Assembly: GCA_038087875.1 (NCBI GenBank)
Contig: CM075988.1
Span: forward strand, 7,380,001-7,444,000
DNA: 64,000 bases
Reading direction: 5' to 3'
Source of the DNA: Malacoraja senta
Taxonomy: Eukaryota
Shown: positions 4,554 through 53,557 of the stretch, one piece after another
How positions within the stretch are numbered: position 1 is the first letter of the stretch
Layout: each line of letters starts with the position of its first letter
Program-made: the position numbers and the translations under genes
Notes under the pieces: model-generated
The model's input: the letters and a program-made list of their open reading frames with translations, nothing else
The model's database searches: none
Told to the model about the DNA's origin: nothing

Positions 4554-6939
4554 GGAAATAGAAGAAACAATAAACACTCTAAAGAATGGAAAAACACCAG
4601 GACCAGATGGATTTTGTAATGAATTTTATAAAAGATTTTATGAGATAATTACACCACGTTTACATAAAATGTATACATATGCTTTCAAAGAACAAACATT
4701 ACCAGAAACACTAGCGGAATCAACGATTACACTTATACCTAAAAAAGATAAAGATCTAGAAGACCCTGGCTCATACAGAGCCATTGCGCTGTTAAATACA
4801 GATCAAAAAATATTAGCAAAAACATTGGCTAGAAGATTAAGTAAATATGTTAGTAAATTAATAAATGCGGATCAAACAGGGTTTATACCCTAGAGATACT
4901 CATGCAATAATCTGAGACGTCTGTTTCACATAATGCATTCATATAAAACTGAAGAACAAGACATCAATTATTTCATTGGACGCAGAAAAAGCATTCGATC
5001 AAGTGGAATGGGATTACCTCGTTAAAGTATTGCAAAAATTTCAAATGGGAGAGAATTTTATCTCATGGGTAAAACTATTATATGACAGGCCCACTGCTAG
5101 AATATTAACTAATAACATGTTGTCCCCGAAATTTCAATTATCCAGGGGCAATAGACAGGGATGCTCACTATCACCTCTGCTATTTGCTCTTGTAATAGAG
5201 CCTCTAGCTGAAAGCATTAGAACACATCCGAATATCCATGGTTATAATACAAAATACTCAAATAATAAAATATCATTATACGCAGATGATGTACTACTGT
5301 ACATCACAAAATCACAAATCAGTATACCAAATATATTAAATCTAATAGAGGAATTGGATCCTTTTCAGAATATAGAATAAATTGGAATAAAAGTGAAATT
5401 ATGACGATAAAACCTCGATTCAACACACCTGTTAAAATTCCCTTTTAAAATTGCTACAGAAAAATTTAAATATTTGGGAATTGAAATTACCAGAAAATAT
5501 AAATCTTTATTTAATGCAAACTATATGCCACTACTTAATAAATTAAACGCCCTGATTAAATTTTGGAAAACACTTCCGATGTCTTTAATAGGCCGAATAA
5601 ATGCTATAAAAATGATCTTTCTACCACAAATTTTATATCTATTCCAATCAATACCAATATACTTACCTAAATAGTTTAAAAAAAAACTGGATTCTGATAT
5701 CACAAATTTTATTTGGGACTATAAATCCCATAGAATTCAAAGAAGACATTTGTGCAAACCTAAAGAATTTGGTGGACTAACACTCCCTAATTTTTTGTAT
5801 TATTATTGGGCAGCAAATGTCAAAAATGTGATTCACCTGTTGGGCAACTCTGCCCAATGAGTGGATTGGATAGTAATGGAGAGAGAGGATTGCTCCCCTT
5901 TTAATATAGGAGCGATCCTTCTCTCACCAATAAAACTGAATAATACAATATACAGTAAAAATCCAATTATTCATAGTACGATTAGAATTTGGTAACAAAT
6001 AAAATTAACCCTAAAATTAAGAAACCTATCGCTTCTCTCTTCCATAGTTAATAATCCGTCGTTTAAACCATCTATTATAGATCAATCATTTACACACTGG
6101 GAAAGAATAGGAATTAAAACGTTTGGAGACATGTATGAAAATGGAATTTTTTTATCATTCCAACAACTACAACTTAAATACAATCTTGGAAGTAACCAAT
6201 ATTTTAAATATTTTCAAATCCGTGATTATTTGAAAAAATATACACAAGAATATCAAAATCTGTCTCCAGACCTATTAGATGAAGCAATGAATATAAAGGC
6301 GGACTCAACTAATTTAATATCATACTTGTATAATATCATCCTAAATATAGAAATACCATCGTCCGATGGAATTAGAAGAGATTGGGAACAAGAACTAGCT
6401 ATAAAAATCTCGAAAGAGAGTTGGGATAAACACTTGCTATATGTGCACAATTGCTCGATCAATGTAAGACATATTCTAATCCAATTCAAAACCTTACATA
6501 GACTATATTACTCAAAAACTAAAATAAGTAATTTTTTTCCAAATGTGTCCCCCATCTGTGATAAATGTCTATCCCAAGAAGCAACTATAGCACATACCTT
6601 TGTTTTTTGTATAAAAATCCAAAAATATTGGAATGAAATCTTTGAAAGTTTTACAAAATTATTATTTAAAATAAAACTGAAACCGAACGCAGAATTGATT
6701 ATTTTTGGAACAATGGAAGCCAGCTTTGAGCTGACTTCGTTCCAAAAGAGTTTCCTTAATTACGGCAAAAAATCTTATACTTAAATTCTGGAAAAACGCT
6801 CCCACACCAACGATAAAAATGTGGATTTCAAATATGTCCGAAATGTTACACCTCGAAGACATGAGATTCCTCCTAGCAGGCAAATCAGACCATTTCCAAA
6901 AGATTTGGTCTCCATTTATCGACTTATTACAAGCATAGG
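4554..6939 (+). pseudogene. L1 ORF2 (RT plus C-terminal Cys-rich domain), broken by stops and frameshifts
   Basis: Motifs KTPGPDGF, YRAIALLNTDQKILAK, DQTGFIP, DAEKAFD, RQGCSLSPLLF, YADD and CDKC...HTFVFC, spread over ORFs 4507, 4976, 5474 and 6131. Confidence 0.95.
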
Positions 6940-7351: not shown

Positions 7352-8704
7352 AATTCAAGTTCAAGTGAGTTTATTGTCATGTGTCCCTGATAGGACAATG
7401 ACATTCTTGCATTCCTTCAGCACAACAGAATATAGTAGGCATTGACTACAAGGCATTCTATAAATATATACACACATGAATCAATATACTGATGAAGTGC
7501 AAATAACATTATTGGCTAGTAAAGTTCAGTGTTATGTCCGAGCCAGGTTTAATAGCCTGATGGCTGTGGGGAAGTAGCTATTCCTGAACCTGGTCGTTGC
7601 AGTCTTCAGGCTCCTGTACCTTCTGCCTGAAGGTAGTAGGGAGATGAGTGTGTGGCCAGGATGGTGTGGGTCCTTGATGATACTGCCAGCCTTTTTGAGA
7701 CAGCGACTGTGATAGATCCCCTCGATGGAAGGGAGGTCAGAGCCGATGCTGCACTGGGCAGTGTTTACTACTTTTTGTAGTCTTTTCCTCTCCAGGGCGC
7801 TCAAGTTGCCGAACCAAGCCACGATGCAACCGGTCAGCATGCTCTCTACTGTGCACCTGTAGAAGTTAGAGAGAGTCCTCCTTGACAAACCGACTCTCCG
7901 TAATCTTCTCAGGAAGTAGAGGCGCTGATGTGCTTTCTTAATAATGGCATCAGTGTTCTCGGACCAGGAAAGATCTTCAGAGATGTGCACGCCCAGGAAT
8001 TTGAAGCTCTTGACCCTTTCAACCATCGACCCGTTGATATAAACGGGACTGTGGGTCCCCATCCTACTCCTTCCAAAGTCCACAATCAGTTCCTTGGTTT
8101 TGCTGGTGTTGAGGGCCAGGTTATTGTGCTGGCACCATATGGACAGTCGCTCGATCTCTCTTCTATACTCTGACTCATCCCCATCAGTGATACGTCCCAC
8201 AACAGTGGTGTCGTCAGCGAACTTGATGATGGAGTTCGCACTATGTCCGGCTATGCAGTCATGAGTATAGAGTGAGTACAGCAGGGGGCTGAGCACGCAG
8301 CCTTGAGGTGCTCCCGTGCTGATTGTTATCGAGTCTGACACATTTCCACCAATATGAACAGACTGTGGTCTGTGAGTGAGGAAGTCGAGGATCCAATTGC
8401 AGAGGGATGCGCAGAGACCCAGTTCTGCGAGTTTGGTAACCAGCTTGGAGGGGATGATTGTATTAAATGCCGAGCTGAAATCGATGAATAACAGCCTGAC
8501 ATATGAGTTTTTGTTGTCCAAGTGGTCCAGAGCGGAGTGGAGGGCCAGCAAGATCGCATCCACCGTTGATCTGTTGTGGCGGTAAGCGAACTGCAGTGGG
8601 TCCAGGTTTTTGTCGAGGTAGGAGTTGATCTGCATCATGATCAACCTCTCAAAGCACTTCATCACCACGGGCGTTAGTGCCACAGGTCGATGGTCATTGA
8701 GGCA
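7352..8704 (-). mobile_element. 5'-truncated Rex1/Babar-type LINE, young
   Basis: Continuous RT frame beginning [11 protein letters not shown]; 3' end atgacaataaa plus a short cttgaa-type tail at 7352-7380 (minus). Confidence 0.9.
7532..8704 (-). pseudogene. Uninterrupted C-terminal half of a Rex1-type reverse transcriptase (no true start; 5' truncated)
   Basis: ORF 7532-8683: [58 protein letters not shown]. Confidence 0.92.
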
Positions 8705-17237: not shown

Positions 17238-17577
17238 GATCTTCAGTATGGACAGGGGGCTGATCTTCAGTATGGACAGGGGGCTGATCTTCAGTATGGA
17301 CAGGGGGCTGATCTTCAGTATGGACAGGGGGCTGATCTTCAGTATGGACAGGGGGCTGATCTTCAGTATGGACAGGGGGCTGATCTTCAGTATGGACAGG
17401 GGGCTGATCTTCAGTATGGACAGGGGGCTGATCTTCAGTATGGACAGGGGGCTGATCTTCAGTATGGACAGGGGGCTGATCTTCAGTATGGACAGGGGGC
17501 TGATCTTCAGTATGGACAGGGGGCTGATCTTCAGTATGGACAGGGGGCTGATCTTCAGTATGGACAGGGGGCTGATC
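17238..17577. repeat. Perfect minisatellite: 14 x 24 bp (GATCTTCAGTATGGACAGGGGGCT) plus GATC
   Basis: Direct reading: 336 bp of identical units with no spacers. Confidence 0.97.
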
Positions 17578-30334: not shown

Positions 30335-30801
30335 TAACTCCCTTGTCAATTCTTCCCTTCACTCCCGCTCCACCCCCTCCCCGGGCACTTTCCCTTGCAA
30401 CCGCAAGAGATGCTACACTTGTCGCTTTACCCCCCCCCCTCGACTCCATTCAAGGACCCAAGCAGTCGTTCCAGGTGCGACAGAGGTTCACCTGCACCTC
30501 CTCCAACCTCATCTATTGCATCCGCTGCTCTAGATGTCAGCTGATCTATATCGGTGAGTCCAAGCGGAGGCTTGGCGATCGTTTCGCCGAACACCTTCGC
30601 TCGGTCCGCAATAACCAACCTGACCTCCCGGTGGCTCAGCACTTCAACTCCCCCTCCCATTCCGTATCCGAACTCTCTGTCCTGGGCCTCCTCCACGGCC
30701 AGAGTGAGCAACACCGGAAATTGGAGGAACAGCACCTCATATTCCGCTTGGGTAGTCTGTATCCTGGTGGCATGAACATTGAATTCTCACAATTCCGTTA
30801 A
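30335..30801 (+). pseudogene. Penelope GIY-YIG endonuclease domain; one frameshift in the C-run 30429-30439
   Basis: PGTFPCNRKRCYTC, then FTCTSSNLIYCIRCSRCQLIYIGESKRRLGDRFAEH...VAQHFN...RKLEEQHLIFRLGSLYPGGMN. Confidence 0.93.
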
Positions 30802-37541: not shown

Positions 37542-38796
37542 ATGTTTTTCGAGGATGTAGCTAGTAGAGTGGATAAGGGAGAACGAGTGGATATGTTGTA
37601 TCTGGACTTTCAGAAGGCTTTCGACAAGGTCCCACATAAGAGATTAGTATGCAAACTTAAAGCACACGGTATTGGGGGTTCAAAATTGACGTGGATAGAG
37701 AACTGGCTGGCAGACAGGTAGCAAAGAGTAGGAGTTAACAGGTCCTTTTCAGAATGGCAGGCAGTGACTAGTGGGGTACCGCAAGGCTCAGTGCTGGGAC
37801 CCCAGCTATTTACAATATATATTAATGATTTGGACGAGGGAATTGAATGCAACATCTCCAAGTTTGCAGATGACACGAAGCTGGGGGGCAGTGTTAGCTG
37901 TGAGGAGGGTGCTAGGAGGCTGCAAGATGACTTAGATAGGCTGGGTGAGTGGGCAAATGCATGGCAGATGCAGTATAATGTGGATAAATGTGAGGTTATC
38001 CACTTTGGTGGCAAAAACAGGAAAGTAGACTATTACCTGAATGGTGGCCGATTAGGAAAAGGGGAGATGCAATGAGACCTGGGTGTCATGGTACACCAGT
38101 CATTGAAAGTAGGCATGCAGGTGCAGCAGGCAGTGGAGAAAGCGAATGGTATGTTACCATTCATAGCAAAAGGATTTGAGTATAGGAGCAGGGAGGTTCT
38201 ACTGCAGTTGTACAGGGTCTTGGTGAGACCACACCTGGAGTATTTCGTACAGTTTTGGTCTCCTAATCTGAGGAAAGACATTCTTGCCATAGAGGGAGTA
38301 CAGAGAAGGTTCACCAGACTGATTCCTGGGATGTCAGGACTTTCATATGAAGAAAGACTGGACAGACTCGGCTTGTACTCGCTAGAATTTAGAAGATTGA
38401 GGGGGGATCTTATAGAAACTTACAAAATTCTTAAGGGGTTGGACAGTCCAGATGCAGGAAGATTGTTCCCGATGTTGGGGAAGTCCAGAACAAGGGGTCA
38501 CAGTTTAAGGATAAAGGGGAAATCTTTTAGGACTGAGATGAGAAAAACATTTTTTACACAGAGAGTGGTGAATCTCCGGAATTCTCTGCCACAGAATGTA
38601 GTTGCGGCCAGTTCATTGGCTATATTTAAGAGGGAGTTAGATGTGGCCCTTGTGGCTAAAGGGATCAGGGGGTATGGAGAGAAAGCAGGTACAGGATACT
38701 GAGTTGGATGATCAGCCATGATCATATTGAATGGCGGTGCAGGCTCGAAGGGCCGAATGGCCTACTCCTGCACCTATTTTCTATATTTCTATGTTT
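37542..38796 (+). mobile_element. 5'-truncated CR1 LINE with a nearly intact RT half (one internal TGA at 38073)
   Basis: YLDFQKAFDKVPH, SGVPQGSVLGPQLF, KFADDTKL, LVRPHLEY, TRGHSL; (tttctatg)-type tail. Confidence 0.95.
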
Positions 38797-39110: not shown

Positions 39111-40159
39111 TTTACTTGATAAGATCACGCCCAGAAGCCTGGCAGTGTGAGACACCCCAGCACTACATGGTATTCCACTGCACCACCCAATAGTTTCATT
39201 ATTGTTTTAATGGATATAACAATTAGTGATATTTATACCACTGTTAATAGTGATAAATATGTAGCTGCATCATTCCATTAAGAATAGGAGAAGAAAGCAT
39301 GGACAGGCAACATCTCGGGAGAGAAGGAATGGGTGATATTTTGGGTCGCGACCCTTCTTCAGACAGGTTGTGGGAATTGGCTGATCAGTCTCCAGATATA
39401 TTTCCTAATCGCTCGTAAATTGGGTTGCATTCCTGATGCATCATGTCAAAGGAGCACGACACTGGTACGGACTTAGCCGAGCCACTTTCCACCAGAACCT
39501 CTGTACTACGGCTGCAGTATATTAACGCACTTAATATGATGCAAGCTGCCCTGGAGACCGGCTTCCTTTGTGTTGATCTCTCTGATCTTTCCACGCAGAG
39601 TCCAGAATACATAATGAATCCTGACTTCCAGATGCCATGCAGTTGTTTTCTCTTGGTGCTCTGGTGTTTATAGACTTAGATCCCACAATAAAAATGAGGC
39701 CGCTTCTGTCATTTTTTTTCTTTTTGCCTCCTGATTCCTTCTCTGCACTTGGGATAATACAGATCCAATTAAATTGGTAATTCAATGTTTGGTAATTTAA
39801 GACTTGTTATTTTTGCCTATCATCACCCTAATTGATAATAAAAAATAGCACAGCATCCCACCCATATCTCTGGAAATTTGGATTGACTGTTGTACTGTTG
39901 TAGTGTATTTAGAATGAGGAAAATAGTCCCCATCTTGTATATATTTTAAAAATGTGGAATCCACTCATAACTCTTGTAACAGTTTTCTCAGTGAAATTCC
40001 TCTTTTGAAATTGGTTCTGATTTCCACGGAGTTTACCATAATCTACAACAAAATGTGCGGCAAATCATGTCGTTATTTTGCGCAATACTTTGATGCAAAT
40101 GTTTATGGTCTAAGAGTCTACACCTATTTGAACACTGTCATGCTAGTCTTAAAGAAAAA

Positions 40160-40365
40160 TACAGTGCTGGAGTAACTGAGCAGGTCAGGCAGCATCCCTG
40201 GAGAACTTGGAAAGGTGACACTTTGTGTCAGGACCCTTATGAAGAATTATATACAATTCTGAAGAAGGGTCCCGACCTGAAACATCATCCATCTATGTCC
40301 TCCAGAGATGCTGCCTGGCCCGCTGAGTTTCTTCATCTTTATAAACCAGCATCTGTTCCTTGTTT
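40160..40365. mobile_element. Palindromic Penelope-derived unit
   Basis: gtgctggagtaactgagcaggtcaggcagcatc...ctgaagaagggtcccgacctgaaac...gatgctgcctggcccgctgagtt. Confidence 0.75.
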
Positions 40366-42902: not shown

Positions 42903-43055
42903 ATCTTGATGCAAGGTCAACACACATCTTTACCAGACTACTTGGCAGGAGTGACTCTTTCTGAGTTCATCAGTGTACATTGCTGCTCTGTATATCCTCT
43001 CCTCCTGTTCCCTTTTGGCTCCCTCTGTACTTTTCCACTTCTCCTTGCTCCTCGA

Positions 43056-43275
43056 AAATAGACACAAAATGCTGGAGTAACACAGCGGGACAGGCAGCAT
43101 CTCTGGACAGAAGGAATGGGTGACATTTCGGTTCGAGACCCTTCTTCAGACTGGAGAAGAGTCTCGACTCAAAACGTCACCCTTTCCTTCTCTCCAGAGA
43201 TGCTGCCTGTCCCGCTGAGTTACTCCAGCATTTTGTGTCTATTTTTGTATTAATCCAGCATCTGCAGTTCTTTCC
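43056..43275. mobile_element. Well-preserved palindromic Penelope-derived unit (arms of about 95 bp)
   Basis: aaatagacacaaaatgctggagtaa...cttcttcagac|tggagaagagtctcgact...ttactccagcattttgtgtctattt. Confidence 0.9.
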
Positions 43276-43380
43276 TCCACTCTCCTTTCTCCTCATTCTC
43301 TTTCTCTTCGTTCGCCAAAAGTGCTGAAGAGAATTGCAGTGCCTAATGGCTGCGATCAATAAACTCTATGCCAATGAAGG

Positions 43381-44152
43381 TGTTCATCCTGGCTAAATTG
43401 GAGCAGCTAGGACTTCAGAATCGGGTTACGTTTCAGGGTTGTGGGGAGATTTGGTCAAATTGGAATTACTCTCTGCAGAGCTGGGGCAAGCTGCAGAGAG
43501 GTGCCAGAGTGCCTGGAGCTTAGATTCAATTTGCAAGCAAAGAATGGGAAGATCTGCAAACCCTGTCAATCTGGTGCAAAATGCATAGAATGGATTGGAT
43601 GGCTGCTAACCAGACATACACCTTGTAAATAGTTGTAAATAATGTTGCACAGTCTGACTTTGCCAAGTGTTGATTGGATGAGGTGTTGAGCCTTGTCTGG
43701 GTTTTCTGTAAATCAGGGTAAATGTTTCCAAGTTGACTTCCTCTCGAAGTCCATTTTGAATACAATGTATTGAACTGTTGTATCATTGTGTTAGGGGAAT
43801 GCCTGTTATGAATGGGGTTAATCGATATCTGTAATTGAGTTATTGAGAGACCACCCCCATGTGATTCGTCCCCTCGAGGTCCCGGGACATATAAAAGTCC
43901 ACGATCACGAGGCTCAGCGTTGATCTTCTGGAAGAGCACTCAGGACTGCGTGAACTTCTGGACTGCCTCTGTCTGAGCGAGGCCTAGAGGGCTTGAACAG
44001 GCAGACGTGAGGATCGAACCCGCGGTGGGATAGGTACAGTGTTTGATCAGTGACGCGCTTTTGGTAAAATAAAATTTAGTTGTTTCAAGTGCTTGATTCA
44101 GTGTTTTTACTGAAACTAGACTGGGGGGGAACTTAGAAACGAGCAATTATCA
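43381..44152 (+). repeat. 5' LTR (772 bp)
   Basis: tgttcatcctggct...gcaattatca; direct repeat of 51017-51786 (16 differences in the first 200 nt by manual count). Confidence 0.97.
43890..43896 (+). promoter_or_regulatory. LTR TATA box (TATAAAA); poly(A) signal AATAAA at 44068-44073
   Basis: Both motifs are present at equivalent positions in both LTRs, in U3-R order. Confidence 0.7.
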
Positions 44153-44153
44153 T

Positions 44154-44171
44154 TGGGGGCTCATCCGGGAT
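44154..44171 (+). promoter_or_regulatory. Primer-binding site, tRNA-Pro
   Basis: TGGGGGCTCATCCGGGAT lies 1 nt after the LTR; 17/18 match to the MLV-type Pro PBS TGGGGGCTCGTCCGGGAT. Confidence 0.93.
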
Positions 44172-46002
44172 ATCAAAGGTCCCCCAAACACAAGTTTGCG
44201 ATCAAGGGTGTTGAGCTGTTTCGATCACGTGCAGAAATCGGGCTAATGGTACGGTTTTCACATTGATTTTCGGCACTTCGTGAGTCGGAGTGGATCGATC
44301 ATTCGTGGGCTTGGGAAAGGATCTAATCGAGATCATTAGAACAGAGTCTAGCAAGCACGGAGGAATGGTTAGCACACCTTTGGGTTGGAGGCTCTTAAAA
44401 CAAGGCTGGGGTTAGAGGCCCTTTCCTGGGTTAGGGGCCCAAAACTGGTCATAGTTGGGCAGACTGCAGTTGCCTTTAATGAGAGCTAAACGTGCTTCAT
44501 TGGGCAAGGAGTAGCCCAGGGTTAGACTTGGTATCCGAATTGGTGAGGTATTAAAAGACAGGTCTCGCCTTTGATCGGATCGTTGCCGGGAGTGCAAATT
44601 GAAAAGGTGCGCTTCGAAAAACAGCATCGATAATTCACAGCGCAAAGCGGCTAGGCGCTGGATCCTCGGTACTTAGCAGAAGGGTGTATCTGTGTGTAGG
44701 TGTCTGAGCCTCTCCCTGAAGTGACGGACGAAGCGCCTCGAAAAGGTACCGAACTTGGACGAACAGAGTATAGATTGGCCGGAATACTCCAGTTCGTTCA
44801 AGAATTTAATCGGGCCATTTTAGCTAATTCGAGAGCCCGCGTAGTAAGAGAGATACGCACTAAAAATTAGGAGATCGAGTTCAAGTCTGAGTATATTTGC
44901 AGCTAAATTTTCAAATACTGGATTTCATATTGAAGTTCTGCGTAAGGTGGGATTCGAATTCCTGTATATAGAACTTCGAAGTTGGTGCATGTCCGTCATC
45001 GATTCCGAATAGCGGCTGATCAACAGTGAATAGTAACCCTCTGGTCGATTGTTGACTCGTACCTGATAGCGAAGAGTACCTGAGAGACGGGAGCCTCCTT
45101 ACTTGATGAAAAGTAATCCGAATAGCGAAGTGTACCCCTAATTCTGTCGAACTTAGAGAGGAGGGATAGAGGTCCCCCTCTAGAAGTCCAGTATTAGCAG
45201 AGGGATAGTAACATTCGGGGGGGAAAATAATCATTTAGGGAATAGTACCCCTCAGCAAAGAGTAAACTAGGAAGGGGAAAATCTTCGGTATCAGAGGGAG
45301 TGGTTCACTGCGTGATAACAGCGTGACGCGGCGTCGAGATCGAGTGTCCGTGAATTGTGCGTTAGTGCTTTAAATCATTTTGTAAATTGTAAAAAATAGC
45401 TTTCCGTATTGTTATAGGATCCGGATTTTGTAAATATTCTCTGTATATAAATAAATTTAGAATAATTAAAAGTTAAGATTTAGATCGTGAATTAAAACTT
45501 GAAGAGAGAGTGTGTTTAAGTTAGATATTCGTATTTGTTTAATATCGTTTCGTAAGAATCTGAATCGGGGTGGTTTGATCAGGGGTTGTACTCCTTCGAT
45601 CGCTGCGCTGGGGGAGGAGACATCCAATTGATTGATTGCGCCACGAGGAAGATTTCTTAGAGTGCGTGATTTATAATAGACGAATGTTTGTGGTTTATTT
45701 AGGGGTTTGGTTGTGCCTGATAGTGATAGGTAGCGTATTATCCTGTTTGTGGACTGTGTTACTTGCGTGTCTGAAAATCATTTTAATATGTTATGATTGA
45801 GAACGTTATAAGGTTGAAAGAGCGTGGACTTGTGGGAGATAGGAGAAGAATTTGAATGAGAGAACAGGACTGGTGGAGCGAAGGAGTAGCGAGTTGCGAG
45901 GTTGCGATCGCGTTGAACCATTAGCCATTGTCTAGGAGCGAGCTTGGTAAATTTAGGGATAAAAGGAAGGATTTAAAAATTCAGTGTCAGGTGTTCGGAA
46001 GC

Positions 46003-48452
46003 ATGGGGAATAATGTAGATAGAGATGTAACAGAAGAAGTGAAAAGCCCATTACAACTAATGTGTAATGAGTTTCCTCATAAGGCAGAGAAATTAAGAAA
46101 TTTATCACGAGCATTAAATAAGAAATTAGGGATTAAGCTATGGCCGCCAGGGGGGAACAGGGACAGTAAAAGGGATAAAATACATAGAACTAATCAATTG
46201 GCAGCATAGTAATAACGAGGGTGCAAAAGAATTAATAGGGTTATGGAGAAAATATTTTGAGGATCGGAAGACGAATAAGGAGGTCAAGAGAATGGCTAGT
46301 TGGGAAAAAGCGATCGCTAAACTTGGATTAGAACTAAAAGAAGGTGAAGTAGATCGACCACCAGGTAGTAGTAGGGACAGGAGTGGAGATAAAGGGAAAC
46401 ACTCAGAACAAGGGAAAGGTGGATCTCCTGGAAGAAAAGTAGTTCCTGTAAAATTAAAGATGAAGAATCCGAAGGTTAGTGCTGACTTCGGGGGGGGGAA
46501 GAGGATGAGTATTTAGAAGAGTGGACAAATGTTAACGTCAGTGGACGTTCACAGCTCCCACCATGTTCCTCTTGCGTTTCCCAGGCTTCATTAGCACCGT
46601 GTATGACTTGTGTCCATAATAAATATTTTAGGTCTGCAGAATCTATAACAACTCCGGCAGATTCTACATCTGAACAGGTTTTACCAACAGCAGATACTGA
46701 GGTAACAGATCCTTCGATCTTATCCACGCCATCACTGATAGATCGTCCAGTGGCTTATGGCACCCGGAAGAAAAGGTTAGCTCCCGTGTTTAAAGGTATG
46801 TTAGATATAGTGCAACCACCAGAGTATTTCTGTGAGCCACAACCTAGGCAGATCACTCGAGTGGAAAGGAATGATTTATTTGGGCAGTATCGGGAATTCC
46901 CTAATGAACCGGAAGATTTATCGGAGGGTGAGACAGTAATTCTAGATACCGAAATAGACTTTGACGTAACTGAAAGTTTATAAATTGAACAGGTATCCCA
47001 TAGGCAGTTACCAGTAAGGGAAGGAATAGGAATAACAGATTCGGCCAGCGCAGTGAGATTGAATAATCCCCGCGTTACAGATGCCCATATGCCATGGAAG
47101 CCCCATGAAATAATGGCAGTACTAAACAGAATCCCTGATAGGAAGAAGTCCCCTGCTGCTTTCATAGGGTACTTGTGGACCACAATGCGTGTATACCATG
47201 CAGATTCACGGGATTTGTGGGAGACCATACAACAGATAATTTCTCCAGCTGAGAATACCAAATTTCTAGTAGCCCTAGGACACCCGATTTATGAAACATT
47301 GGCGGGCGAGGTAATGGACGACAGTGCAAGAGAAGAGGTTGTTTTAACGGCCCTTGCAAAAACGTTTCAGAAACCAGGCGATTTAAGTCGAGTCCTGGAA
47401 ATAAAACCAGAGAAGGGGGAAGGAGCAGACGAATTTCTAGACCGCTTTTCAAAATTATATATGGATCAATCAGGTGATTTAGACTATCAGAATGGAGTAA
47501 GTTCCCCTCAATATTATGCGGTCTTGTTGAATTATCTACCCACTAAAATAGCGGATTTAATTAAAATAAATAAAAGGAACTGGTCTGAGAACCGAGCCAG
47601 TCAAATAGCCAGAACTGTGAGATATTATTGGAAGGAAGGTAGGAACCAGGAAAATTATTCTGTAACTAGGAGAGAAAGTGAACGCACAGCGAAGGAGGAA
47701 TTACCAAAATCTAACTCTGAACCATGGATTCCCAGAGTGCCAACAAATTACGGATTGGGAGATATTAGAGTCCCAGATTACTCTCACCGTTATACTCCCA
47801 ATCTCAAGCACATTTCAATGGAACCCAGGGGTAGAATAAGACCAACAATGCTACCTAACCAATGCTATACTTGCGGAGGGATGGGACATTGGAGTAGGGC
47901 CTGTCCAACGAAGGAACGGATGAAAGAGAGGGGTCAAAGAAGGGGTTTCCAGGATTAAGACGAACTTAGAGATCCTAGAGAATATAGAGACATCCGACAT
48001 CCAAGGAATTATGGGAGGTCCTTTAATTCAAGAGACTACTGGGACCCAAGAAACCAGAGAGAGACAGATGGCCCGAATGTCAGGAACTGAGAAGTCACAC
48101 ACCGTTTACTCAAGCTACCCCATTTTCTCAGTCCTGACTCACCAACCCGTCCTGGAATTGTGGGCGTGGAGACATGACCCCTACTCTGGATCCCTCTCAA
48201 GTAATTTACCAGAATGAGTGGATTGGATATACTATTGTAATAAAAACTGGAAATATTATGGAAGAAAATTATAAACCCTCTTCTGATTACCCCAGAAAAC
48301 CCCTTAGAGCAAAGAAGATTGTAAATCAAGGAGCTTGTTTCAACTGCACCCAATCAGGTCACTGGAGCAAGGAGTGTCCAGCGAGAAGGCAGAACATAGC
48401 TGGATTGAAGAAAAATCAAGAGGCAATAAAGAAAGTAAGAAAAGGAACATAG
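46003..48452 (+). pseudogene. gag: Retroviral gag (MA-L domain-CA-NC with two CCHC knuckles), few lesions
   Basis: MGNN start; WPPGG; PPEY at 46816-46827; QLPVRE; HMPWKPHE..IPD..P..F capsid N-terminus; MHR IKPEKGEGADEFLDRF at 47401-47448; CYTCGGMGHWSRAC at 47863-47904; CFNCTQSGHWSKEC at 48336-48377. Confidence 0.9.
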
Positions 48453-48945
48453 TAGTGAGTGTGAAAAGAAATAGCAACTGAGGAATGGAAATGGCACTAC
48501 GGAGAGAAGAAACAAACTTACCGTGCAGGAGGAATGGGAGTGGGGGAAAGAAGATATTGAATTAATGTATTGCTGAGTTTTGTGCCTGCAGGACAGTGTG
48601 TCAACAAGAGACTGTCTGGGGAGTGAGGTAAAAGAATGCACAGACCCCTAAGAACAGGAAGAAGACAGCGAAAGGTAATGTAGCTCCCCAGAAAAAGGTG
48701 ACCAGCAGGAAGAATTGATACTGTCCTGCCCCTTTAAGACATTTGGGAAGGCCAGCAGGCAGAGCGACATGCTCCTCAGTATCTCCACTCCCTAGTAACC
48801 TATACCATCAGTAGAAAGGAGGAAGAAAAGGACCTACCCTAGTGCCCAACTTTAATATCACCTAGCTACTGAAGGTAGAAGAGGAAGGGGAACAAAGGAC
48901 ACTTTAATAATCTCCAAAAGAAATAACTGACAACTTATAAAGACT

Positions 48946-49165
48946 GTTAGAAAAACAGAATTTCTCTGTGATTCGGGGCAAAATACTCACTTTGCGCCAA
49001 AATTTAATTATTAGTAAATTAATTCAAAGAGGGCTTATGGGATACAGTCTCAGATTTGTTAGAGAATTGACTGTTAATTTAGCATTCTTCTTTTGTCTCA
49101 CCCATAGGAGGATAGTCAAAGATAGGACTGGACTATTTAGTTACTACCAAGGAAGGGACAGACCC
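48946..49165 (+). pseudogene. Eroded aspartic protease trace
   Basis: VRKTEFLCDSG, then AKYSL after a 1-nt shift (DSGA active-site pattern); GLMG and GRD follow in another frame. Confidence 0.5.
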
Positions 49166-49728
49166 TAGCGGATATCAGGAATTAAGACATACCCTGGAAA
49201 CGTAAGGTGGTAGTATAAAATGATGAGGTAGACCGAAAATTTATGTTCCCCTCGGAAGATCAATACTAACCATCTAGAAGTTACTTAGAGATAAGAACCC
49301 CTAGACAAAGAACGAAGCCAATAGAATAAAAGCGAGAACCCATAGACAGAGAACGAAGCCAACTTAGTAAAAAGCCAACATAGTGGAGAATTAGCATAGT
49401 AACGAGTTACCATAGTGATGCATACATAAATAAGAGGAGATACTGGAGGAAAGACTTGGTTAACTGTAGGGTGAACCTTGAATTGTATTGGGAATAGCAG
49501 ATCTGAAGTGTATTCACCCGATGGATTTGAATTGTTTAACCCATGATGGTAAAGCGGCTTAGATCATCAAGGTGGAAAGAAATTGTCCCTGGATTTGGCA
49601 TTTTTGATTGGGCTTCAGATAAAATTAATAGTAAAGGAAATTGATTGTTTAAATTTGAACAGCTGGGAATTCCACAGGAATTGGAAGGGAATTGTTTTAT
49701 CGGCTACAATGCTGTGGAATGAGAAGAG

Positions 49729-50005
49729 ACCGAGATGAGGAAAAACTTTTTCACACAGAGAGTGGTGAATCTCTGGAACTCTCTGCCACAGAAGGTAGTT
49801 GAGGCCAGTTCATTGACTATATTTAAGAGGGAGTTAGATGTGGCCCTTGTGGCTAAAGGGATCAGGGGGTATGGAGAGAAGGCAGGTACGGGATACTGAG
49901 TTGGATGATCAGCCATGATCATATTGAATGGCGGTGCAGGCTCGAAGGACCGAATGGCCTACTCCTGCACCTATTTTCTATGTATCTATGTATCTATGTA
50001 TCTAT
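49729..50005 (+). mobile_element. Young CR1 3' fragment inserted in the provirus, 12-bp TSD
   Basis: gaatgagaagag at 49717-49728 and 50006-50017; (tatctatg)n tail; very similar to 38530-38796. Confidence 0.93.
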
Positions 50006-50269
50006 GAATGAGAAGAGGAAATGGGCATTGAAATTCAAAAAAGTAAATTGAAGGCTGAAACTGAATTTGGTTAAATTGGAACATTTATCATGGTTTGCTT
50101 CAAATTAAAGTCACGCCTGTAGGGGAATTTGGACCGAACCCAGCTGAAATTTATATGATTACCCGTCATCAGATATACATAGTATAACACCGTGTGAGTA
50201 TGAAGAAGGCTAATTAGTGTCGATCCTAGAATAATAAAGAATATATTAGGGAACAGAATAGGAATAGGG

Positions 50270-50623
50270 GTACTTCAGATATGAAGATTGTATGTACATA
50301 ATAGTTGTATGTATATATATGTCTGTAGGTATTATGGGAAATTGCCTAGGGTAGTATTATTATTAGTAATGAATTGATTTTTAAATATGATAGAAGTGTT
50401 GGGGAAAAGGGGTGAGATTTAATAAGTTATTCTTCTTCTCACTCCTTTTCGAGCTTGTACAGACACAGAGTTGGACATTGGAACTTTGATTTTGTTCTTC
50501 TCATTGCTTTGTAAATATTGATTGTAATGTCCAATTGTTTGATAATTTCGATTTTGTTAATATTAATGTCTTTAATGTCTTTACTTGTTCGGAATAAATA
50601 AATAGATAAATAAATAAATAAAT
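50270..50623 (+). mobile_element. LINE 3'UTR fragment related to the 2126-2863 element, inside the provirus (left boundary uncertain)
   Basis: aataagttattcttcttctcactccttttcg resembles the reverse complement of 2262-2293; ends ttgttcggaataaa(aata)n. Confidence 0.65.
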
Positions 50624-51004
50624 AGTGAACAGTAATAGAGCAATAGATAATAGAATTGGGATGGGTTCAGGTGAAATAGGAATAGCGAATGTGTTAGAAA
50701 GCATGAGTGAATGATGGTCACTTGCTTTGTCCCAAGCTTCTTAGGATTTTCTAGGGTTTAGGTTCGACTGTGAAAGGTGATGGAAGACTGGGCAGGGACA
50801 CGGATGGAGGGAATTCGCGCCCACGAAAACTCGGGAGGTGAAGACTCCTCAGACAGAACTTGTGAAGTTATGCCCATGAAAACTCTGGACGTTTGACAAG
50901 ATTCTGAGAAGAAACATCATCATCTTCTGTTACTGATAGATAGGAAATGTAAAGCACACTTATGTATATCTGGTTAGCTGAGCCACTTTGGTTATCATTA
51001 TGAT

Positions 51005-51016
51005 AAAAGGAAGGAA
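51005..51016 (+). promoter_or_regulatory. Polypurine tract
   Basis: aaaaggaaggaa immediately 5' of the 3' LTR TG. Confidence 0.85.
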
Positions 51017-51786
51017 TGTTAATCCTGGCTAAATTGGAGCAGCTAGGACTTCAAAATGGGGTTAGGTTTCAGGGTTGCTGGGAGATTTGGTCAAATTGGA
51101 ATTACTCTCTGCAGAGCTGGGACAAGTTGCGAAGAGGTGTCAGAGTGTCTGGAGCTTAGATACAATTTGCAAGGAAAGAATGGGAAGATCTGCAAGCCCT
51201 GTCAATCTGGTGTAAAATGCATAGAATGGATTGGATGGCTGCAAACCAGACACACCTTGTAAATAGTTGTAAATAATGTTGCAGAGTCTGACTTTGCCAA
51301 GTGTTGCTTGGATGAGGTGGTGAGCCTTTTCTGGGTTTTCTGTAAATCAGGGTAAATGTTTCCAAGTTGACTTCCTCTCGCGGTCCATTTTGAGTACAAT
51401 GTATTGAACTTTTGTATCTTTGGGTTAGGGGACTGCCTGTTATGTATGAGGTTCATCGATATCTGTAATTGGGTTATTGAGAGACCACCCCCATGTGGTT
51501 CAGCCCCTCGAGGTCCCGGGACATATAAAAGTCCGCGATCACGAGGCGCAATGTCGATCTTCTAGAAGAGCGCTCGGGACTGCGTGAACTTCTGGACTGC
51601 CTCTGTCTGAGCGAGACCTAGAGGGCTTGAACAGGCAGACGCGAGGATCGAACCCGCGGTGGGATAGGTACAGTGTGTGATCTGTGACCGGCTTTTGGTA
51701 AAATAAAATTCAGTTGTTTCAAGTGCTTGATTCAGTGTTTTTACTGAAACTAGACTGGGGGGAAGCTTAGAAATGAGCAATTATCA
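51017..51786 (+). repeat. 3' LTR (770 bp)
   Basis: tgttaatcctggct...gcaattatca followed by TSD aagg. Confidence 0.97.
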
Positions 51787-52704
51787 AAGGAATGTTCATT
51801 GCCATTTATTTTGGCGCTATTTTTTGTACACTTGCTGGAGAAGGATCAACCTGCAGTGTGTGCAGCTCTGAAGCTAATTTATTTGAGAAGACGTTTCATA
51901 TTTTGAAAACGCATTCACTTGTAGTCAGACTTCACATGTAATGCCTGAATGAGACTTGCTAAACAGCAAGGAAAGCTCTTGGGTATTCGTGACCTTAATC
52001 AGCTGCTGGTTCAACTTTTTAATATCTTTTGAATGAAGTCATCAAATCCCGTTTTCATTAAAGTTAGAGGCTTCTGAATGAATATTCCATCTAACTACTC
52101 CTGCTTAAATGATCACCAGCCCTGCTAATATTAGGAGAAATAGATCCATCTTTTAGTTATTGCTATTTTTTATTGCAAGGTAGGGTTGATTGCAAAGGTA
52201 CAATTTTAAAATTGTACGCAGGTTTAATATTTTCCTCTAATTACCAGTATTTAGATAATGTAGCGTTCACAGTTTTGCACAGCTAGTTTAAAAATGAGAA
52301 CTCCCTGTGAAATGAGAACATTCCCACGGGGCATTTTCTTTGCAGGACTGTCGCGACCTCAAAATAGGAGTCAATTAATCAGGATAGAAATAAGAAGTAT
52401 TGTTCCAAACTCAAGAGGGTGGAATCATTGGAATTTTCCTAGTGAGGTTTTGAGCCCCAATCATTAAGTTTATTCAAGTCAAGGAATAAGTGTAGTCATT
52501 AAAGTTAGAGATAGCAGAATAAGCTAGAATATGTCCTGAATTACACTGTCGTTGTCTACCCCTGTTTAGCAAAGAATGGATAACTCAGTAACACATGGAA
52601 AATCTTGTTGTTCAATACATGCAAAAATCTCCTCTCACTCAATGAGGCTGTTAGGATGGAATAAGGATATTAATTCCTTGAATAATTTTATTTTTTGTGA
52701 GATA

Positions 52705-53017
52705 TGGGCGGCACAGTGGTGCAGCGATAGAGTTGCTGCCTTACAGTGCCAGAGACCATGGTTTGATCCTGACTACGGGTGCTGTCTATATGAAGTTTGC
52801 ACATTCTCCCTGTGACTGCATGGGATTTCTCCGGGTGCTCTGGTTTCCTCCCACATTCGAAAGTCGTGCAGGCTTGTAGATTAATTGGCTTCTGTAAATT
52901 GTCCCTACTTCGTAGGATAAAACTAGTGTATGGATAGAAGGATAGAACTAGTTGGTCGCCATGGACTCGGTGGGGCCAAAGGGACTGCTTCACGTTGTAT
53001 CTCTAAACTAAACTAAA
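52705..53017 (+). mobile_element. HE1/V-SINE-type SINE
   Basis: gggcggcacagtggtgcagcgatagag head; tail ctctaaactaaactaaa. Confidence 0.88.
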
Positions 53018-53364
53018 TATAATTTAAAAAAACACATTATGTCAGTTATCCGCCTCCTAAGGAAATTTATTTCCTGATAAGGCACTTGAGCAAAGAATGA
53101 CACAAAGTGCTGGAGTAACAGTAGCATCACTTAAGCAACCAGAACAACAACAGAAATACACACCTTTGATTGCCGCTGGGCTGTGCTAGTTTTACTGCAC
53201 ATGCCAGGGAGGTTATTTGAGATGACAATAACATATCTACACTTACTGGATAACTGAATTAAAAAAATAAAGAGACACTCAGCTGGTAACGCAGAATCAA
53301 TGGTCAGAGAAGCAATTCATGGTTTCAGTCTGGGTCTCTCTTCATATAGTTTTTGCGATAACTT

Positions 53365-53557
53365 GTGTCGGAAGGAACTGCAAATGCTGGTTTAAACTGA
53401 AGATAGACACAAAATGCTGGAGTAACTCAGCGGGAGAGGCAGCTTCTCTGGATCGCTTCAGACCTGAAGAAGGGTCTTGACCCAAAATGTCACCCATTCC
53501 TTCTATCCAGTGATGCTGCCTGTCCCGCTGTGTTACTCCAGCATTTTGTGTCTATCT
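53365..53557. mobile_element. Palindromic Penelope-derived unit
   Basis: gatagacacaaaatgctggagtaac ... ctgaagaagggtcttgacccaaaatgtc ... gttactccagcattttgtgtctatc. Confidence 0.85.

Follow-up and report, generated by a model that had tools for sequence, protein, structure and literature searches.

The provirus and its gag gene

We examined an endogenous retrovirus (ERV) at positions 43381–51786 of a 64,000-nucleotide stretch of the Malacoraja senta genome (contig CM075988.1, positions 7,380,001 to 7,444,000 of the forward strand; hereafter the window, whose numbering is used throughout). Judged from its sequence, this element is a complete class I (epsilon-like) provirus, an old and broken copy of a large family that lacks env. 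All cis-acting signals that the initial annotation had described as intact were located: the AAGG target-site duplication (TSD), long terminal repeats (LTRs) with TG..CA ends, TATA and AATAAA signals, a tRNA-Pro primer-binding site (PBS), and a polypurine tract. The features, all on the + strand, are listed below (MA, matrix; CA, capsid; NC, nucleocapsid; ORF, open reading frame; RT, reverse transcriptase; LINE, long interspersed nuclear element).

43377..43380, +: 5' TSD AAGG, from boundary comparison
43381..44152, +: 5' LTR, 772 nt, TG..CA ends; TATAAAA at 43890, AATAAA at 44068
43760..45490, +: late U3-R-U5-PBS-leader block common to the pol-bearing subfamily B2, attributed to recombination
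44154..44171, +: PBS, tRNA-Pro type by motif match, one mismatch in this copy
46003..48137, +: gag; MA with Gly2 and WPxxG, CA, NC knuckle at 47860–47907; ends in a family-conserved UGA
48138..48452, +: ORF2, in the same frame as gag after the UGA; protease-derived stump (about 48144–48251), second CCHC knuckle (48333–48380), basic tail
48600..50200, +: noncoding pol remnant; RT start 48600–48700, tether 49050–49200, RNase H 49150–49300, integrase core 49500–49724 and 50013–50200
49725..50012, +: private insert 1, CR1-type LINE 3' end with (TCTATGTA)n tail
50272..50628, +: private insert 2, very young dispersed repeat with (AATA)n tail
50800..50935, +: conserved 3' untranslated block, about 75–84% identical to all pol-bearing relatives
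51005..51016, +: polypurine tract
51017..51786, +: 3' LTR, 770 nt, TG..CA ends
51787..51790, +: 3' TSD AAGG

The two LTRs differ at 53/770 sites (6.9%; Kimura two-parameter distance 7.2%), slightly less than the 8% (16/200) counted in the initial annotation. A 4-bp TSD was present in 7/7 loci in which both ends were located (including L038, L047, L049, L050/L052, and L064; two of the seven are duplicates, and L-numbers are locus labels). The PBS, separated from gag by a 1.8-kb leader, is presumably of the tRNA-Pro type, the reference being the murine leukemia virus (MLV) motif and not host tRNA genes; the motif is matched exactly in many paralogs.

The family was sampled by searching the 1.94-Gb genome with gag DNA (41 of 509 candidates scored) and with the LTR (40 of 3287); counts are thus lower bounds. 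Altogether 39 gag-bearing loci were read. Another copy of the element, L031 (G000:C12:7545330-7555329), lies 122 kb downstream and is 99.96% identical over 10 kb including the flanks, and it would represent either a recent segmental duplication or an assembly duplicate. Similar near-identical pairs are L044/L045, L050/L052, L051/L053, L062/L063, and L066/L067.

Comparison with natural paralogs revealed premature stops at 46981 and 47956 and frameshifts near 46160, 46495, and 48065 in the window gag, in agreement with the handful of lesions first reported. The fragment at 46984–47955 carries the CCHC knuckle (zf-CCHC match in Pfam), and its predicted fold is confident over CA (predicted local distance difference test score, pLDDT, >90 for residues 41–220). 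Using Foldseek, we found MLV CA as the top matches of this model (E-values 8.6e-5 and 1.4e-4), with no others below 0.001. Pfam gave no Gag_p30 match for the window gag ORF and weak Gag_p30 matches in homologs; a sub-threshold Arc_C match (E = 0.023) is the sole pointer of the window Gag toward Ty3/Gypsy elements. The nearest database relatives are Amblyraja radiata XP_032877507.1 (80%) and proteins of sharks (39–48%), in keeping with an elasmobranch host; no longer relatives of Gag were found in protein databases. Listed in RefSeq as an uncharacterized protein, the A. radiata gene model LOC116973492 corresponds to part of the family's Gag.

Each stop in gag occurs in a single copy, apart from a few recurrent CpG-type hot spots, and few indels are shared. 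Pairwise dN and dS were fitted to a tree of 30 of the 39 copies with a purpose-built distance estimator, after dropping near-duplicates (L045, L052, L053, L063, L067) and four poorly covered copies. For gag, the resulting dN/dS was 0.29 (0.23–0.39) for internal branches and 0.64 for terminal ones, or 0.30 and 0.66 without CpG codons, and off-frame controls gave 0.88–1.42 on internal branches; because internal branches are short, all these values are approximate, while their direction and frame specificity are clear. As the family spread, purifying selection acted on gag, and the neutral dN/dS that would have spoken against a replicating Gag-bearing lineage was not found.

Loss of pol and the second ORF

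Loss of pol is common to the family, as the initial annotation had supposed in placing the decay before this integration. The RT core was found in 0/39 family copies compared with 19/20 distant relatives, and an intact protease in 0/39 compared with 16/20; none of the 39 loci is a paralog whose intact pol would make the deletions private to the window copy. Most loci are colinear with the window and bypass 49725–50012 and 50272–50628. Of the 26 copies in which the distance from ORF2 to the LTR could be measured, 13 have 1885–2003 nt, 12 are longer because of inserts, and one is shorter. Past ORF2, the family has 41–45 stops in common in each frame, and many 1–2-nt indels are shared by subgroups. 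This DNA aligns colinearly with the RT start, tether, RNase H, and integrase core of relatives in up to 28/28 copies tested, with 0 bins aligned in a reversed control. In the window copy, about 1.3 kb within 48600–50200 is colinear with a relative's pol once the two inserts are removed, the RT core being deleted. Integrase remnants gave dN/dS of 0.56–1.3 with 9–15 frameshifting gaps, compared with 0.17–0.30 for pol-bearing copies between subfamilies. The pol remnant is evolving neutrally, and the short interior is a trait of the family.

Several details of pol could be refined. The length of about 1.3 kb and the integrase trace stand as first described, whereas the protease motif had been misplaced: the 1.3 kb shows no trace of protease, its scores falling within those of shuffled sequences, and the true stump lies within 48138–48251. 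The RT core is indeed wholly gone, but RNase H, reported as invisible, and the tether are detectable as DNA remnants. Integrase and the polypurine tract are separated by about 450 nt without the insert, not 200 nt, which is still far too short for env. Pfam analysis of three frames of the leader and the post-gag region found no retroviral domain. A DTG-like sequence, FLCDSG (48961), was considered as protease and rejected, since it sits past the RT-start remnant and its score falls within those of shuffled sequences. Both inserts had been called LINEs. Insert 1 is indeed a CR1-type LINE and shares a C-terminal peptide with the LINE ORF at 38076–38702; insert 2 is 99–100% identical to at least 38 other places scored (786 candidates), and is probably a recently active non-LTR element.

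Directly past the gag UGA, 104 open codons in the gag frame (48138–48449) form ORF2, a second, selected ORF with its own CCHC knuckle that was overlooked in the initial annotation. It occupies the position where Pol was reached by stop suppression. The stop at the end of gag is present in 31/32 covered copies (UGA in 31/33, followed by C in 30/33) and that at the end of ORF2 in 28/30; 23/33 copies have no internal stop. In the 30-copy set, ORF2 dN/dS was 0.41 (0.22–0.74) on internal and 1.14 on terminal branches (CpG-free, 0.40), and a wide set of 33/37 copies including older lineages gave 0.38 (0.21–0.56). A genome search with ORF2 returned 151 matches with identity down to about 50%, and a frame of 104–105 codons is still bounded by stops in many copies that are only 52–65% identical.

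The origin of ORF2 could be traced through relatives. The first codons past the gag stop of L074 match the central part of L078's intact protease at 63% identity (E = 8e-16), this protease being confirmed by Pfam RVP. Protease-similarity scores then fall stepwise, from 121 in L074 through 73/56 in L070/L081 and 44/41 in L075/L148 to 45 in the window. The link is based on this stepping-stone series together with Smith-Waterman comparison against shuffled sequences (0–2 of 1000 shuffles); direct BLASTP of the window ORF2 against the protease of a relative or the ORF2 start of L074 gave no alignment. The knuckle segment is most similar to the element's own NC. ORF2 is thus the protease without its catalytic half, fused to this segment, and it illustrates how debris of pol can give rise to a new small protein. 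Protein database searches with ORF2 found nothing, and ESM Atlas returned only generic knuckle clusters (0.90–0.91, weak).

Pol-bearing relatives and the exchanged leader

A CA protein search (150 of 1306 candidates scored) revealed a second tier of loci at 59–65% identity, 20 of which were read; most have a class I pol. Gag and pol lie in one frame separated by a stop, the PBS is the same as in the family, and pol has Pfam matches to RVP, RVT_1, RNase H, rve, and MLVIN_C. This pol is closest to MLV (223 bits, versus 33 for Ty3 and 31 for foamy virus; 147, 103, and 77 in a second comparison). A related LTR starts about 0.5 kb past integrase in 25/40 integrase loci, leaving no room for env. The LTR pairs of the relatives are 5.6–7.3% apart (five loci, three from short matches) and those of the family mostly 5–10%. 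The pol-bearing relatives appear to be env-less and of the same age as the family.

The search for a pol-intact helper with related LTR and PBS, recommended in the initial annotation, yielded a candidate, subfamily B2 (L072, L076, L079, L084, L087, and L088). Compared with the window, B2 is 82–97% identical in most 200-nt bins at about 43760–45490, but 56–74% in gag and about 62% in CA, whereas relatives outside B2 are about 70–80% identical in leader block and gag alike. The tree built on CA resolves the family and B2 as two distinct clades, each with full support. In the tree of the R-U5-PBS-leader block, B2 copies are dispersed within the family; two fall in the youngest clade, together with the duplicate of the window element, and the approximately unbiased test rejects monophyly of both the family (P = 3e-7) and B2 (P = 4e-5). 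Breakpoints at about 43760 and 45490 recur in five to six unlinked B2 copies. In addition, B2 copies have the half resembling the window's family (family A) in both LTRs, which are still about 6% apart, implying that a cycle of reverse transcription followed the exchange. These patterns point to repeated exchange of the leader block between the family and B2, of the kind that template switching between copackaged RNAs leaves.

Some relatives with less of pol appear to form a graded series. At its first stage are env-less gag-pro-pol elements (group B and L078); at the second, ORF2 stands in place of protease, with RT and integrase still selected (RT dN/dS 0.12 for L070 versus L089); at the third, the RT core is deleted and much integrase is left (L148, L158, L162, L163); and progressive erosion then leads to the state of the window copy. 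The relatives would thus record loss of protease, then of the RT core, then of integrase, an order taken from nested structure and not from a rooted tree. The CA tree leaves the connection of groups A, B, and C unresolved (support 62/7), and L078 retains protease though inside the C clade, so recombination blurs the order.

Contigs from three other organisms cover 30/30 bins of 44200–53200. One contig (run X5) spans the junction between the 3' LTR and its flank, reaching 34 letters into the LTR and differing by about 5%, which suggests that the window insertion probably predates the split from that organism. No RNA run was among the matches listed in the sequencing-run search.

Some further observations concern these elements. 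Between protease and RT, helper pol has two HIT motifs (L076:2900-3200, L078:2812-3300), which hint, as motifs only, at a 2H phosphoesterase/CNPase domain; Pfam gave no match for such a domain in helper pol. The second half alone of this stretch survives in protease-less relatives. L072 is mosaic or nested: its gag and the start of its protease are of B2 type, half an LTR lies internally, and pol remnants and a 3' LTR of family-A type follow. Gly2 (46003–46008) is retained in Gag of both family and helper although both are env-less; env-less intracellular mouse ERVs have lost membrane targeting.

Other repeats were also noted. In a separate, much younger ERV family, whose integrase is 63–64% identical to the helper's (e.g., G000:C2536:37252-38010), dozens of copies located on unplaced contigs still have long open frames. 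The window contains palindromic, MITE-like (miniature inverted-repeat transposable element) repeats at 43055–43245, 53365–53557, and 40151–40340 (arms about 85–95 nt, up to 91–92% complementary), a perfect 24-bp tandem array at 17238–17577 (14.2 copies, 100% matches), and non-LTR retrotransposon ORF fragments at 7532–8704 (−), 38076–38702 (+), 5996–6784 (+), and 30449–30801 (+), the last presumably encoding a Penelope-type GIY-YIG endonuclease.

Interpretation and comparison with known systems

A lineage with its own Gag and a helper's Pol had been proposed in the initial annotation, and shared pol loss, selection on gag, and a candidate helper support it. It is likely that the family is a nonautonomous, env-less class I ERV lineage that supplied its own Gag and obtained protease, RT, and integrase from the related pol-bearing, env-less B2. 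Retrotransposition would have taken place inside germ-line cells. Element RNA would have made Gag, and a minor Gag-ORF2 with a second knuckle would have come from leaky readthrough of the UGA where gag and pol once met. The RNA may have been packaged along with helper RNA and Gag-Pol, template switching inside the shared particles would have swapped the cis-acting block, and selection on gag could have persisted because Gag prefers acting on the RNA that encodes it. The window copy itself has been dead ever since insertion. We infer the readthrough, co-assembly, and expression of these products from the DNA.

A further hypothesis, which we put forward tentatively and would not call probable, is that the gag-pol readthrough slot became a dedicated accessory of the parasite, its protease trimmed to a stump without catalytic function and joined to a duplicated NC knuckle. 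Gag-ORF2 might have been kept through loss of RT and integrase because it aided the place of an enzyme-less RNA in helper particles or the recruitment of enzymes from them, parasite and helper having coevolved by repeatedly trading the primer-binding and packaging block. If so, almost every step from an autonomous retrovirus to a satellite still supplying its own capsid would be preserved as a fossil in this genome.

Several points weigh against reading the family in this way. Terminal gag dN/dS is 0.64–0.66 instead of 1, meaning that the split into internal and terminal branches is imperfect, and the estimator is our own distance fit over short internal branches. For ORF2, one off-frame control in the wide set fell to 0.69 (0.42–1.01), the predicted fold is poor (pLDDT 50), and an ATG at codon 13 in 26/33 copies would allow separate initiation. 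As for readthrough, the UGA context differs between the family (TGA-CTC/CTT) and the helper (TGA-TTA/TCA-G), and a search for an RNA hairpin 3' of the UGA found none that is stable (z = 0.88). Mixed assembly would have to involve Gags about 62% identical in CA. LTR matches within 2.4 kb are missing from 15/40 integrase loci, making env-bearing relatives possible; in these 15 loci no long ORF was found, the longest (244 amino acids) being LINE-type. Finally, 39 of the close copies were read, and the searches scored part of the candidates.

Among other explanations, the true helper could be an autonomous sibling, rare and missed by the sampling, that combines the family's gag with an intact pol, B2 having taken its leader from abundant defective RNA. 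The deepest branches of the leader tree are family-A copies with B2 nested inside, which fits family A as donor; the number of candidates scored (41 of 509 with gag DNA, 150 of 1306 with CA) leaves space for such a sibling, and one was likewise proposed for Bik-1, according to PMC12067270. However, the erosion of pol is ancient and common to a long succession of lineages, so that an intact sibling would need to persist unseen throughout, A-type gag with RT was seen in none of the 39 + 20 loci, and recombination with B2 itself presupposes copackaging with B2. We therefore regard this sibling as unlikely. That the leader mosaic reflects gene conversion among chromosomal copies, and hence says nothing of copackaging, might be suspected since both groups are numerous and near-identical duplicated loci exist; the same breakpoints in unlinked B2 copies and the A-like half in both of their diverged LTRs already disfavor it, and we give it hardly any credence.

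Gag might also have been kept for host benefit (distributed co-option), with mobilization in trans that needed no Gag of its own. Co-option has been proposed for zebrafish Bik-1/2 and chicken ERNI (PMC12067270), standard trans-complementation as described in PMC8922424 requires no functional gag, and A. radiata has an annotated gene model for a Gag of the family. Yet all copies read are broken and decayed after insertion, terminal dN/dS is far above internal, and selection is located on replication branches and not on resident loci; host benefit is accordingly very improbable. It is rather improbable that ORF2 is untranslated and conserved as an RNA signal. Such a view would suit the low-confidence fold and the missing readthrough structure, but conflicts with the frame-specific excess of synonymous change, with the stop-bounded frame kept in highly diverged copies, and with the majority of copies free of internal stops. 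The preferred reading remains a Gag-bearing parasite of B2.

In classification, TG..CA LTRs with a 4-bp TSD, a PBS of the Pro motif known from MLV, an MLV-closest capsid, and a one-frame, stop-separated gag-pol all point to class I (gamma/epsilon-like), as do the gammaretroviral RT, tether and RNase H, and MLV-type integrase C-terminus of the relatives' pol, with which the window remnant is colinear. The Pro PBS, 4-bp TSD, and MA WPxxG motif cited initially as class I traits are all present. Membership in Ty3/Gypsy was considered and rejected, given the MLV-best capsid in Foldseek and the 223 versus 33 bits of the relatives' pol; Gag and integrase did not group with these elements.

Under trans-complementation, all genes of a hitch-hiking ERV are expected to decay, according to PMC8922424. 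Gag-only families (MaLR, BHIKHARI, ENS-1) nevertheless keep arising, and intermediates or the partner are missing for most. Here, selection on gag is measurable on replication branches, the partner was found via recombination, and intermediates are extant; with these three features, sequence data can be used to test why a retroviral parasite retains a Gag of its own. Searches of the open-access literature found no account of the family.

The mammalian ERVL-MaLR elements, described as pol-less and env-less with a gag-related ORF and inferred intracellular spread (PMC11359688), resemble the family in these respects. They differ in being class III with ERV-L gag, whereas the family is class I with a Pro PBS, 4-bp TSD, and MLV-like CA, and still has pol remnants and intermediates. 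The MaLR analogy drawn in the initial annotation holds for how the element works, but MaLR is not the only such case, since gag-only nonautonomous ERVs that kept transposing are reported in zebrafish (BHIKHARI Bik-1/Bik-2) and chicken (ENS-1) (PMC12067270), which also lowers the surprise. Per the same source, Bik elements are lokiretrovirus relatives with a coiled-coil N-terminus, a glycine-rich tail, and an unidentified partner, and ENS-1 is sister to ERV-L. The gag-only way of life is shared; by description, Bik Gag has no zinc knuckle, whereas the family has two zf-CCHC matches, and the family differs from both in its putative readthrough ORF, its identified partner, and its having only old copies.

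ETn is not known to have intact ORFs. In bovine ERVK[2-1-LTR] D/C, ETn/MusD, and RecKoRV/KoRV-A, the defective and the competent element have their LTR and adjoining blocks in common while the center is exchanged, recombination being read as evidence of copackaging, and bovine D-type elements are described as having no intact ORFs (PMC10924933). The family similarly shares LTR and leader with a competent partner around a different center; unlike the ETn and bovine D-type members, which have no functional ORFs, it keeps its own distinct Gag and ORF2 under purifying selection. Its UGA at the old gag-pol junction resembles that reported for SSSV, ZFERV, and a frog ERV (PMC13517186). The two HIT motifs of helper pol resemble, as motifs only, the CNPase domain reported for epsilon-like fish ERVs in PMC4977317, where ZFERV is described as carrying env. 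The family and its helper differ from ZFERV and SSSV in this respect, being env-less. SSSV, too, is env-bearing.

Based on these comparisons, the gag-only lifestyle was reached independently in class I, by a family that belongs to neither the MaLR, ENS-1, nor Bik families. It is set apart from known gag-only ERVs by selection on a Gag distinct from that of its helper, a selected stump/knuckle ORF, an identifiable partner, and surviving intermediates.

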